Positions 7,777 through 11,111 of a stretch of DNA of 48,734 bases are shown here, piece by piece. Position 1 is the stretch's first letter. Every line of letters begins with the position of its first letter. A model generated the notes under the pieces. That model saw only the letters and a list, made by a program, of their open reading frames with translations, did not search any database and was not told the DNA's origin. The position numbers and the translations under genes are program-made. This stretch comes from a virus. Its lineage: Duplodnaviria > Heunggongvirae > Uroviricota > Caudoviricetes. The DNA is taken from IMG/VR virus record IMGVR_UViG_2703718802_000011, one strand, 5' to 3'.

Positions 7777-8139
7777 CTATGACTGGCTGTTTTCAGTAAG
7801 AGTCTTATCATCCAAAGAATTTATTCTAGAAATTCTTTTTAACTCATTAAGATAATCAACCTCGTTTTCTAAGAACCAATGAAGAACTTTAGAGTTGCCA
7901 AGTAATTTATTAATATATGACTGGATTATAACGAATTTCAACATATCTGAACCATACTCGGTTTGAAGTTTTTTCGTTTCTTCCGAAGTTGTTGCCATTT
8001 CTTGTTCCAGACGAAGTATGGTTTTTTTTATGTCCTTTTTATAGGGAGTGTTTTTCCCTTTATTTACTATCATCGATGACGGTGTTGCATCCAAGATGCT
8101 CATTGCAAATTTTTTACTATAATTATCAAAATTAATCAT
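7777..8139 (-). CDS. Hypothetical protein, last gene of the recombinase/ParB-like operon
   Basis: 120-aa ORF whose start overlaps the stop of the upstream ParB-like gene by 4 nt. Confidence 0.4.
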   Translation of the reverse strand: MINFDNYSKKFAMSILDATPSSMIVNKGKNTPYKKDIKKTILRLEQEMATTSEETKKLQTEYGSDMLKFVIIQSYINKLLGNSKVLHWFLENEVDYLNELKRISRINSLDDKTLTENSQS

Positions 8140-8672
8140 TGTACCGACTGCTTCAATTTGACGAATTGGCTTCTTTTCCTCAAAACGTCAAATGTAGCCT
8201 TAGGTATAGGTTTATCAGAAAGTTTCGCAATTACACTTGGATCTATGCCGTTCATCACATTAGCTTTATCTTTTATGGCATCAACAGATATGCCCAAAGC
8301 AGCACTAAGTTTTTCAATTGATACTTTTGCCAGAGACTTAATTATCATTCTATGTTCTTCAACTACATTTATATGATTCACTTGTTTGTTAGGAGTGAAA
8401 GCATCATCTATGCTCGAAAGTATACATGGAGCTTTTTCTATATCTAAGTCTTTTAAAGCCTCAACCCTTAAATGGCCATCAAGTATCTTAGTGACATCTT
8501 TATCTTTGTCATAGAATACTATTATTGGTTCAATAATACCCAAGCTTTCGATAGAGGTAACTATTTGATGATATTTATGGCTTCGCTTTACGTTTTCTAA
8601 TAATTCCTTAGATGGAATTAACTTATTAGTTTCCAGGTAAATAAAATTTTTGCCAAAACGTATCTGAATCAT
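8136..8672 (-). CDS. ParB/Srx-fold (ParB N-terminal domain-like) protein
   Basis: 178 aa; 'IIVFYDKDKDVTKILDGHLRVEALKDL' resembles the ParB/sulfiredoxin DGHHR-type motif; 4-nt overlap with the upstream gene. Confidence 0.45.
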   Translation of the reverse strand: MIQIRFGKNFIYLETNKLIPSKELLENVKRSHKYHQIVTSIESLGIIEPIIVFYDKDKDVTKILDGHLRVEALKDLDIEKAPCILSSIDDAFTPNKQVNHINVVEEHRMIIKSLAKVSIEKLSAALGISVDAIKDKANVMNGIDPSVIAKLSDKPIPKATFDVLRKRSQFVKLKQSVQ

Positions 8673-9565
8673 TTTGATACCTCTTTGTTTACTGGGTTTA
8701 ATATCTGAGATGGTAGTTCTGAAAGATTCTCTTGTTCAAGTATATTTTGAAAGCTTTTATTCATCATTATGATGTTAAAAATCTCATTTATTATTAGTAG
8801 ATTGGTTTTTATAAATTTCGAGTTGTTATAAACAGATTTATGTTCAGCGATACTATTTTCATAAAGCTCAATCAACTCCTCTGCAGTCATCCTTTTTGAT
8901 GGTTTGTGATAATAAAATCCGGCTGCTTTTGCACCTTTATTCCCAACTGTTCTTTGATTTAGAATGTATTTTATCTTTATAATGTCCCGACTTTTTATTA
9001 ATTTTTTATCATATGCTTCGGTAAGAATATCTTGTGCTTCCTCAGTTTCACATCTTGCAAATTGCACTGCGAGATACAGAGGCAAATTGCCCCGTTCGAC
9101 TGCTGAGAGAAGTTTATGCTCTCCCTTATCAAGAAGCATATTAATACTGCTCACCCAGTTCGATGAATATCCAGTAATCTCACTTATTTCGGAGTCTGAA
9201 AGTCCTCTGATTTTCATGTCTTTAATCACCTGTAATAACTCATTAGAACGTGGTCTTCTCCTTGCAATGTTTTCAACTAAACTCATAACGTAAGCATCTT
9301 CTTCTGATACATCTCTTATAATTGCTGGAATAATAGTTTCACCTAATGCAACAAGAGCCTCTATTCTCCCTTGACCACAAATTAAAGCATATTTGAAATC
9401 GTCTTCATCAATAGCTCTTACGCTTATAGGCTTGCTTAATCCTCTTTTTTTTATGCTTTCCTTTATTTCTTCATGCACTACCTTATTTCTTGTTCGTGGG
9501 TTAAGAAATTTTATTTTTGCAATCTCAATTTGAATTATTGGGAATTCATTTTTTTCAGGCAGCAT
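8669..9565 (-). CDS. ParB-like partition/nuclease-domain protein with HTH
   Basis: 298 aa; 'ISVRAIDEDDFKYALICGQGRIEALVALGETIIPAII' (ParB box-like) followed by an HTH-like 'LSDSEISEITGYSSNWVSSI'; overlaps the recombinase 3' end. Confidence 0.5.
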   Translation of the reverse strand: MLPEKNEFPIIQIEIAKIKFLNPRTRNKVVHEEIKESIKKRGLSKPISVRAIDEDDFKYALICGQGRIEALVALGETIIPAIIRDVSEEDAYVMSLVENIARRRPRSNELLQVIKDMKIRGLSDSEISEITGYSSNWVSSINMLLDKGEHKLLSAVERGNLPLYLAVQFARCETEEAQDILTEAYDKKLIKSRDIIKIKYILNQRTVGNKGAKAAGFYYHKPSKRMTAEELIELYENSIAEHKSVYNNSKFIKTNLLIINEIFNIIMMNKSFQNILEQENLSELPSQILNPVNKEVSK

Positions 9566-11111
9566 ATAGTTCCCTCACTTTCATGCGAGTAATAATTTGT
9601 AGAAATTTATCAAGATTATCAAATCTATAGAGATCTAACCGAATGTTGTTTGTTTCCATCATACACATTTTACTATATTCGTTTTCAATCTTTGGTATGA
9701 TATAAAAATCAAGAGGTGAAATATTTTGTGAATTCATTCGTATAACAATTGTTATGTCTGCTTTCTGTGAGTTATCAAACCGGACTTTCCATCTAAGTTT
9801 ACCTGATTTCATATGTATGCATTTAGTAACAAGGACGGAAATTAAAAACTCATCATTGATGTAAAGCATTGGGTAATATTTATACTCGTCTATATGACAG
9901 TTACTTTTTAATATTTCGCCCTTAAAATCCTCAATTATCTCTGAGTAAAATGATCTTAGTGCTTCATTTATTTGGAGATAGCTGTAATCATGTTCTGGCT
10001 TATAACCAATCAAAGTATATGCTCTTAAAAGACCACCAAATCGGGTTCTATAAACAGAAGATGAAGGGCCTGTATCATCTTCATCAATGATAAAGCCTGA
10101 TAGTTTTCCATTAGATTCTAATTTTTCTTTTAGCTTTTCTAATAGATCTTCATTAGTCAAATGAATGGATCGGAGCTGAATTATTTCTTGAGCTTTATTA
10201 TATTTTTTCTTTGAAATAATTGGTTTATATGCCTTGTCACATCTAATCCATTCATGTTTGGGGTTTTTTACAAGCTTACTTTTTAGTTTAGATGAGGTTT
10301 TGTTATATATGTTGTTTCCAATATATTTTTCATTTGTCAAAATTTGATGTATTTTTGCACGAGTCCATGATGTTCCATTTTCTGCAGGTATGCTCTGTTC
10401 ATTTAATCTCTCAGCAATAATGAATTCTGGGACGTTACTATCTATAAAGAGATCATAGATTCTATTTACAATTTTTATTTCATTTTTTGGTCCCGGAATT
10501 AATATTACCCTATCTGTTTGAATACTCTTTCTTTTGCGGAAATTCAATATTTCTTTAGCTATGCCATTTTCGTCTACTAAAAGACGTCTCAGCCCATAAC
10601 CAGCCATACCGCCTTGATGATAACCAAGCTTTATTAAATTTACTTGCCCTATAAATACCTTTTCAGATAGATTCCTGCTGTGATATGCAGCACTTGATCT
10701 TTTTATATTCAGTATAACAGAGGACTCTAAAGGGAAATCTTTAGTGGGTATAGGTTCGGAACAATATATAAGATCTACACCATTTCTTTCAAATAGAAAG
10801 GAATAATATGCAGCTTCATCACTATTTTGAAAACGACCAAAACGGCTCACATCATAAAATAATACAGCCTGTATATCTATTTTCTTTTGTTCTACATCGC
10901 TAAGTAACTGCTGCAAAGAATGCCTGCCTACGATACTGACTCCGCTCTTACCTGCATCATCGTAGGTATAAGCGATTTCCATATTGTTCTTTTCAGCATA
11001 ATCTTTGATATATTCAGACTGATTATGTAAAGAATATTGCTGATGGTCGGTAGACATCCTCAAGTACTGTGCGACCCTAACTCTATGATTTTTTTCATTT
11101 CCGCTAGCCAT
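9555..11111 (-). CDS. Large serine recombinase
   Basis: N-terminal catalytic motifs 'YLRMSTDHQ' (Ser nucleophile), 'DDAGKSG', 'GRHSLQQLL', 'DVSRFGR', plus a large C-terminal domain. ATG at 11109-11111 (track ORF begins at TTG 11117). Confidence 0.7.
   Translation of the reverse strand: MASGNEKNHRVRVAQYLRMSTDHQQYSLHNQSEYIKDYAEKNNMEIAYTYDDAGKSGVSIVGRHSLQQLLSDVEQKKIDIQAVLFYDVSRFGRFQNSDEAAYYSFLFERNGVDLIYCSEPIPTKDFPLESSVILNIKRSSAAYHSRNLSEKVFIGQVNLIKLGYHQGGMAGYGLRRLLVDENGIAKEILNFRKRKSIQTDRVILIPGPKNEIKIVNRIYDLFIDSNVPEFIIAERLNEQSIPAENGTSWTRAKIHQILTNEKYIGNNIYNKTSSKLKSKLVKNPKHEWIRCDKAYKPIISKKKYNKAQEIIQLRSIHLTNEDLLEKLKEKLESNGKLSGFIIDEDDTGPSSSVYRTRFGGLLRAYTLIGYKPEHDYSYLQINEALRSFYSEIIEDFKGEILKSNCHIDEYKYYPMLYINDEFLISVLVTKCIHMKSGKLRWKVRFDNSQKADITIVIRMNSQNISPLDFYIIPKIENEYSKMCMMETNNIRLDLYRFDNLDKFLQIITRMKVRELYAA

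Follow-up and report, generated by a model that had tools for sequence, protein, structure and literature searches.

The window analysed here is IMG/VR record IMGVR_UViG_2703718802_000011 over its whole length of 48,734 nucleotides, a stretch of Escherichia coli DNA adjoining ssrA. On the minus strand it carries a serine recombinase gene, rec, followed by two genes for ParB paralogues, ParB-A and ParB-B, which together are called the trio below. The genes of the trio are strictly linked and under selection, are not accompanied by a ParA ATPase, and combine an atypical large serine recombinase (LSR) with a palindrome in the promoter region. We conclude with high confidence that rec, ParB-A and ParB-B are a self-contained module in the backbone of plasmids and of integrative or mobilisable elements.

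The three-gene operon and its split third gene

The operon and its promoter region comprise the following features:

9555-11117 (minus strand): rec, from the list of open reading frames (ORFs); PGAP start at 11111 (518 amino acids, aa), giving a protein of 518/520 aa
8669-9565 (minus strand): ParB-A, 298 aa, with Pfam, NCBIfam and PDB profile matches
7777-8672 (minus strand): ParB-B pseudogene, 298 aa if intact, present as ORF3 (8136-8672, 178 aa) and ORF4 (7777-8139, 120 aa)
11148-11172: imperfect palindrome of 25 bp, GGTTAAAA(A)-TTGATCAA-TTTT(T)A(A)CC, with the core AAAATTGATCAAATTT at 11152-11167

The original prediction, made from the window alone, described four overlapping genes. Its coordinates stand, and the four minus-strand ORFs listed for the window do overlap by 11, 4 and 4 nt, but the genes number three, the third being frameshifted. 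ORF3 covers positions 2-73 of the Pfam RepB profile and also matches ParB_N, and ORF4 covers positions 86-177; because the two match consecutive parts of the same profile, they are halves of one gene. Strain 300709 has an undivided gene for a single 298-aa ParB/RepB/Spo0J protein in a region that is 1 bp longer, and alignment with this strain places the missing T between window positions 8174 and 8173. The RM10410 copy, identical to the window, has its ParB-B gene annotated as 'frameshifted' in RefSeq, and the 1-bp deletion is present in one of 613 complete E. coli genomes. The deletion splits ParB-B, and the overlap at 8136-8139 is therefore a frameshift artefact rather than the sign of translational coupling it had been taken for. 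What were previously counted as separate genes, for a shorter ParB and for a protein of 120 aa, are both parts of one frameshifted 298-aa ParB paralogue, so that the small ORF is not a gene. The real unit, with high confidence, is rec, ParB-A and ParB-B in this order; its third gene is inactivated in the window, which holds a decaying copy.

Recombinase, ParB paralogues and promoter palindrome

Hidden Markov model searches support both the recombinase and the ParB folds. The serine recombinase, recognised initially by its catalytic YLRMST motif, matches the Pfam models Resolvase (PF00239, E-value 7.6e-22) and Recombinase (PF07508, E-value 5e-22), and both downstream genes encode the proposed ParB/Srx N-terminal domain, together with a helix-turn-helix (HTH). 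The domains of rec are:

residues 16-154: Resolvase, with S20
residues 212-314: Recombinase
residues ~320-370: homing-endonuclease-associated helical repeat
residues ~400-500: beta-rich C-terminal domain

Residues R18, S20, R90 and R93 are invariant among 66 diverse homologues. Structural alignment with SprA, Bxb1, A118 and phiC31 spans the first ~200 residues of rec, and the Recombinase domain is placed after the long alpha-E helix, which is the arrangement of an LSR. Residues 320-518 are kept across the whole family without a zinc-ribbon signature, and no zinc beta-ribbon with embedded coiled-coil was found in rec. The absence of this element sets rec apart from the LSRs, including the phiC31, Bxb1, A118 and SPbeta SprA integrases, the TnpX/TndX transposases and CcrA/B. 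In its place rec has an HNH-associated helical repeat and a beta-rich domain, possibly of restriction-endonuclease fold; it further differs from LSRs in always sharing an operon with two ParB paralogues and in having no known attachment (att) sites. The NCBIfam CcrB model scores 64 bits on rec, against a cutoff of 900.

The first ~50 residues of the 320-518 region resemble the homing-endonuclease-associated repeat PF18780, which forms tandem arrays in other recombinases. The C-terminal domain can tentatively be regarded as a nuclease fold, possibly PD-(D/E)xK or restriction-endonuclease-like. Its conserved residues are E421, D446, D452, T454 and R458; a conserved lysine in a (D/E)xK context was not found in the comparison of 66 homologues. 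The family is large, with at least 6,449 clusters at 90% identity retrieved by profile search. One metagenomic representative of 773 aa, P0489, consists of Resolvase, Recombinase, the family-specific C-terminal domain and a RepB-like region, and is either a natural fusion of rec with a ParB or a read-through artefact of overlapping genes.

ParB-A displays a ParB/Noc/Spo0J-like N-terminal domain, an HTH and a RepB-type C-terminal domain. It scores 50.9 bits with PF02195 (cutoff 26.3) and 61.7 bits with TIGR00180 (cutoff 58.45), and matches the PDB profiles of Spo0J (1vz0, E-value 6e-19) and Noc (7ol9). ParB-B is a diverged paralogue, which remains under the cutoffs of the same two models (25.5 and 34.7 bits, respectively) and matches the Noc profile 7ol9 at an E-value of 4e-10. 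Both correspond to PHROG families labelled 'unknown function': ParB-A matches phrog_3951 (E-value 2e-82), and intact ParB-B aligns end to end with phrog_31451. An N-terminal ParB/Srx domain, an HTH and a C-terminal dimerisation region are shared with the ParB/Spo0J/Noc/KorB clamps. Box II, in contrast, reads CGQGR in ParB-A, where it is invariant as C-G-Q-G-R-x-E, and DGHLR in ParB-B (D-G-H-x-R, within L-D-G-H-L-R), instead of GERR; neither protein has the GERRxR box II that binds cytidine triphosphate (CTP). Box III of ParB-A, S-L-V-E-N-I-A-R-R, is kept. The DGxxR motif of ParB-B presumably resembles motifs of DndB/DUF262-type defence proteins. The trio further differs from the clamp systems in lacking ParA, in the constant pairing of its paralogues, and in having a single promoter site rather than centromere clusters. 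The C-terminal domains of both ParBs match the RepB model (PF07506), a likeness to RepB of repABC loci; unlike those loci, the trio lacks repA and repC, and the NCBIfam RepB equivalog model gives 37 bits against a cutoff of 201.

The ParB-A score above the TIGR00180 cutoff and the RepB C-terminal domains would suit an ordinary ParABS-type partition locus with an unrelated recombinase beside it. Such a locus is extremely improbable here, in view of the two ParB paralogues, the apparent lack of a parS array, the strict linkage and overlap with rec across phyla, and the exclusively chromosomal location in E. coli. ParA, already noted as missing from the operon, is equally missing around it and elsewhere: none of 724 flanking ORFs has a deviant Walker A motif (N-terminal KGGxGK[ST]), and no ParA cluster is seen among the neighbours.

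The palindrome at 11148-11172, which can also be written as GGTTAAAAA-N8-TTTTTAACC, overlaps the -10 element of a promoter-like site upstream of rec (11192-11164, minus strand). It is the only strong match in the window, two further matches with three mismatches being at chance level. The exact core occurs once in each of four related loci; in other lineages, those of Alphaproteobacteria, this position (-40 to -60 from rec) is taken by palindromes of another sequence. Its sequence makes the palindrome a candidate operator and/or recombination site, and its 16-bp core appears reminiscent of the parS/OB sites of ParB/Spo0J/Noc/KorB. Pairs of att sites or junctions for rec were not found, and the promoter palindrome is the sole candidate site.

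A serine recombinase adjoining a variable region could also be expected of an inversion or phase-variation switch acting on the adjacent cargo, and an inversion module was among the earlier suggestions. A search for inverted repeats found no pair fit for such a switch, the repeats of the window being AT-rich noise. No segment is bracketed by an inverted-repeat pair, each locus has one palindrome, and orientation polymorphism was not noticed among the E. coli matches; a switch of this kind is very improbable. We also rejected an inversion by the recombinase in BL21(DE3) NZ_CP081489.1 (loci L091/L092), where the trio is joined to tRNA-Arg/yqaB. This assembly, of a rearranged or reduced strain, has other non-K-12 gene orders as well (glaH-kgtP and tadA-fimE), and in E. 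coli B the neighbour of the trio is IS1.

Conservation and surroundings of the trio

Proposed from the window alone, the operon proves to be co-conserved elsewhere far beyond chance. Rec, ParB-A and ParB-B follow each other in this order, overlapping or abutting, in every sufficiently complete locus of the ~80 species loci compared, which span Alpha-, Beta-, Gamma- and Deltaproteobacteria, Acidobacteria, pAtC58 and E. coli B/BL21. The same gene order recurs in Geobacter, Salmonella, Morganella, pAtC58 and one 7.4-kb virome contig. Among IMG/VR contigs, 83 carry the trio, and the order is kept on the 53 that are not from E. coli. Homologues of ParB-A with identities down to 35-40% occur in Geobacter, Rhizobiales, Sphingomonadales, Burkholderiales, Xanthomonadales and Acidobacteria, and a pattern scan of the species-genome collection for ParB-A yielded at least 596 confirmed relatives. 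Each of the three genes has a ratio of nonsynonymous to synonymous divergence (dN/dS) of 0.03-0.13 in diverged pairs, which indicates strong purifying selection. Two pairs of loci, L016 with L017 and L087 with L088, display synonymous divergence (dS) that is 4-6 fold apart between rec and the ParB genes (e.g. 0.15 vs 0.70-0.86); such inequality inside one locus pair indicates recombination within the module.

Of 5,426 complete E. coli genomes, 656 (12%) carry the trio; it is chromosomal in every case, with essentially one copy per genome. The laboratory lineage of E. coli B and BL21 is among the carriers. The surrounding ssrA island, which is mobilisable, has the following features in the window:

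11394-12623 (minus strand): P4-type tyrosine integrase of the ssrA island; in E. coli, the trio invariably comes after this allele
12790-13000 (minus strand): partial ssrA copy (att duplicate) matching positions 155-374 of the Rfam tmRNA model, the integrase-proximal end of the island
6971-7776: non-coding stretch of 806 bp downstream of ParB-B, 98% conserved in Leclercia and Enterobacter

The order is ssrA (47675-48037), a P2-like prophage, the partial ssrA, the P4-type integrase, the trio, the non-coding stretch and the cargo; the integrase is the one that the original prediction had placed next to the operon. This integrase allele occurs in 600 E. coli genomes, and rec adjoins it in every one; ssrA integrases of 79% identity occur without rec. 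The integrase allele and rec are always linked and the cargo is variable; the trio is therefore backbone, not cargo, in E. coli. No E. coli genome was found that has the same integrase allele without the trio, that is, an empty site. Leclercia and Enterobacter share the att, integrase and trio segment together with the 806 bp at 98% identity and are divergent beyond it. The stretch itself has no Rfam match and no ORF longer than 75 aa, the ssrA fragment being the sole Rfam find. The cargo past it includes RelA/SpoT-domain and NACHT genes and an ankyrin gene, with a relaxase gene just outside the window.

A tyrosine integrase lies upstream on the same strand in 21 of the ~80 loci, in ssrA, tRNA-Arg, tRNA-Asn and guaA islands and often with AlpA, and is absent within 5 kb in the other 59. 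This absence would be accounted for if rec were the integrase or excisionase of the whole carrier, whether island or prophage, acting in place of the tyrosine integrase or as a reserve for it, with the ParBs as directionality or regulatory factors. The closest phage family is labelled 'integrase' by PHROG, and a tRNA-Arg gene is located 0.5-0.9 kb upstream of rec in loci L152 and L019. On 27 of the 53 non-E. coli IMG/VR contigs the trio lies within 1.5 kb of the contig end, in some of them following tail genes and a fusion of AlpA with NusG; IMG/VR, however, predicts its provirus boundaries, and these may by design stop at recombinase genes, so that this enrichment is only suggestive and not proof of an integrase role. 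Such a role appears improbable. Rec lacks the zinc-ribbon and coiled-coil on which att synapsis and directionality depend in LSR integrases, the E. coli and guaA islands already have their limits set by an intact tyrosine integrase with its att site, and attL/attR were not identified.

The edges of the module are sharp. Between genera, homology ends 0-5 bp from the ParB-B stop codon, and the upstream edge is found 60-150 bp before rec, or ~700 bp where a divergent HTH-like gene is included; this gene of ~115 aa, without a Pfam match, is present in 30 loci, mostly alphaproteobacterial. Such edges, seen in at least six independent locus pairs, are notable because dS is just 0.2-0.9, and neutral flanks should still align. 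The common block of pAtC58 and Rhizobium alvei measures only 3.9 kb, at 92% identity. These patterns might be produced by a selfish, self-mobile cassette of the promoter and three genes (3.4-4.2 kb, plus the divergent HTH gene in Alphaproteobacteria) that rec moves from one carrier element to another, with the ParBs aiding target choice or control. The homing-endonuclease-type modules of rec and the 3' fragments of integrase genes beside the trio in three loci are consistent with a cassette. The left edge, however, is the upstream edge of the promoter, as selection alone predicts. L016 and L017 are homologous again beyond an unrelated segment of 2-2.5 kb, as expected if a variable cargo slot adjoins a backbone. 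Terminal repeats, sought in 74 loci by local alignment of the 900 bp upstream with the 420 bp around and downstream of the trio end, are at the level of the reversed-sequence controls; only L020, with a duplicated integrase fragment, and L090, with a repeat of 158 bp, are exceptions. No shared target sequence was found in the flanks, no empty site is seen, and the trio is essentially single-copy and, in E. coli, never apart from the integrase. We consider self-mobility of the trio unlikely.

The flanking C-terminal integrase fragments are explicable as decay of tandem islands. They are located at 11712-11936 and 15685-16212 in E. coli CH468 (L094) and at 7836-8044 and 11877-13220 in Buttiauxella (L020), and in these two loci have 71-75% aa identity to the neighbouring or full-length integrase. 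Two candidates for traces of recombination were rejected: a tRNA-like direct repeat that flanks the pAtC58 copy has a score at the null level, and in two Morganella loci of 99.9% identity the sharp junction that resembled a recombinase crossover, 25 bp upstream of rec, is the IS26 end TTTGCAACAGTGCC. In the Morganella morganii locus L007 (1-222) this IS26 end severs the promoter region of the operon.

Defence and toxin genes abound near the trio, among them AbiE, type I restriction-modification, HipA, Fic, NACHT with RelA/SpoT, and SNF2/UvrD helicase genes, and a DUF3987 gene directly follows the trio in five loci. The defence genes, the patchy spread over 12% of E. coli genomes, the DGxxR motif of ParB-B and the possible PD-(D/E)xK fold in rec would be expected of an anti-phage, anti-plasmid or exclusion system, in which ParB-type nucleoside triphosphate switches sense or coat foreign DNA and rec damages or rearranges it. 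This role is quite unlikely. In E. coli the trio is constant beside the integrase, whereas the defence genes are variable cargo, and the canonical (D/E)xK lysine is not conserved in rec. PADLOC-DB v2 has no match for rec, ParB-A or ORF4, and for ORF3 the sole match is to the ParB domain within a methyltransferase model. To our knowledge, no defence system has a serine recombinase as its effector.

Possible function and further features of the island

Tentatively, and with a probability of about 0.35, we propose that the trio acts as an autoregulated module for site-specific recombination and maintenance, in which the ParBs are accessory factors. Among the roles raised originally, maintenance of the island would be the most plausible, and a ParB-nuclease-based function finds no support. 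Transcription would start at the promoter overlapped by the 25-bp palindrome, and one or both ParBs, or rec itself, would bind the palindrome and autoregulate the operon. Rec would be a catalytically intact serine recombinase, with other DNA-binding modules in place of the zinc-ribbon and coiled-coil, and would be co-translated with the ParBs, which would serve it as accessory or architectural factors. The three proteins would recombine two copies of the single palindromic site. Dimers, concatemers or tandem copies of a circular carrier, be it excised, replicating or a plasmid, would thereby be resolved and its inheritance stabilised without ParA.

The fixed order of overlapping genes in the ~80 species loci and 53 viral contigs argues for this maintenance function, as do the dN/dS of 0.03-0.13, the catalytic residues invariant in 66 homologues and the position of the trio as invariant backbone in E. 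coli, with variable cargo beyond ParB-B. A circular transfer form of the island is to be expected since the carrier island encodes a relaxase; the trio is also found on plasmids such as pAtC58, and has DUF3987 next to it in five loci. The single promoter palindrome of each locus with its lineage-specific equivalents, the absence of ParA nearby, and the 773-aa protein in which rec is fused with a RepB-like region point in the same direction.

In its logic, the trio might be analogous to the multimer-resolution loci Tn3 res/TnpR and RP4 parCBA. In Tn3/gamma-delta res-TnpR and RP4/RK2 parCBA, too, a serine recombinase gene has a palindromic site in its promoter region, and the operon of the RP4 resolvase encodes two more proteins with a part in stable inheritance. 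These partners are not related to those of rec, the RP4 ParB being a staphylococcal-nuclease-type enzyme and not of the ParB/Srx fold; rec, moreover, is of the large type, and no three-subsite res is seen.

Several points weigh against a maintenance role. Neither a product of recombination nor a second site or att pair was seen for rec, and large serine recombinases are mostly integrases or transposases, not resolvases. Chromosomal islands, which have a tyrosine integrase of their own, may never have to be resolved, and the palindrome may be just an operator. To judge by its motifs, ParB-A lacks the full GERR CTP-binding motif, which makes clamp-type behaviour doubtful. About 10% of trio copies are decayed by frameshifts or insertion sequences, and the trio is therefore dispensable to the host. 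Literature searches returned no description or function of the trio.

A more specific proposal, possible but doubtful, is that the trio represents an unrecognised three-component recombination system, in which the ParB-type pair of nucleotide switches would load at the palindrome and then license, guide or topologically constrain rec, whose homing-endonuclease-type and nuclease-fold modules would bind DNA in place of the zinc-ribbon and coiled-coil. Were this so, the trio would be central to numerous islands, prophages and plasmids as one of their core functions, and might yield a differently targeted serine recombinase for genome engineering. Control of a recombinase by the ParBs would widen the repertoire of ParB-CTPase functions to recombination control, as distinct from segregation. 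The trio is common on islands, prophage-like regions and megaplasmids, yet its database labels are only generic, as in PHROGs; if it stabilises or moves carriers of defence and virulence cargo, it would be a missing piece of island biology.

Further observations concern the ssrA island and its cargo. The partial ssrA at 12790-13000 separates the P2-like prophage from the P4-integrase island, indicating two elements in tandem at ssrA. The P2-like prophage has an integrase-proximal cargo slot, occupied in the window by an ORF of 363 aa with low guanine-plus-cytosine content (12890-13981) and in strain 300709 by an anti-phage deoxycytidine triphosphate deaminase; the different cargo makes this slot a likely defence hotspot. 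The NACHT gene, intact in 300709 (702 aa), is split in the window into 3703-4764 and 4764-5819, and is adjoined by the RelA/SpoT-domain gene at 5819-6724, which has a weak PADLOC match to PDC-S33. The two genes are a candidate two-gene defence cargo, apparently damaged in the window strain. In the E. coli B/BL21 lineage (L093 of E. coli B, NZ_CP115178.1, 12982-18925), the ssrA island is reduced to the integrase and an intact trio, followed by IS1.

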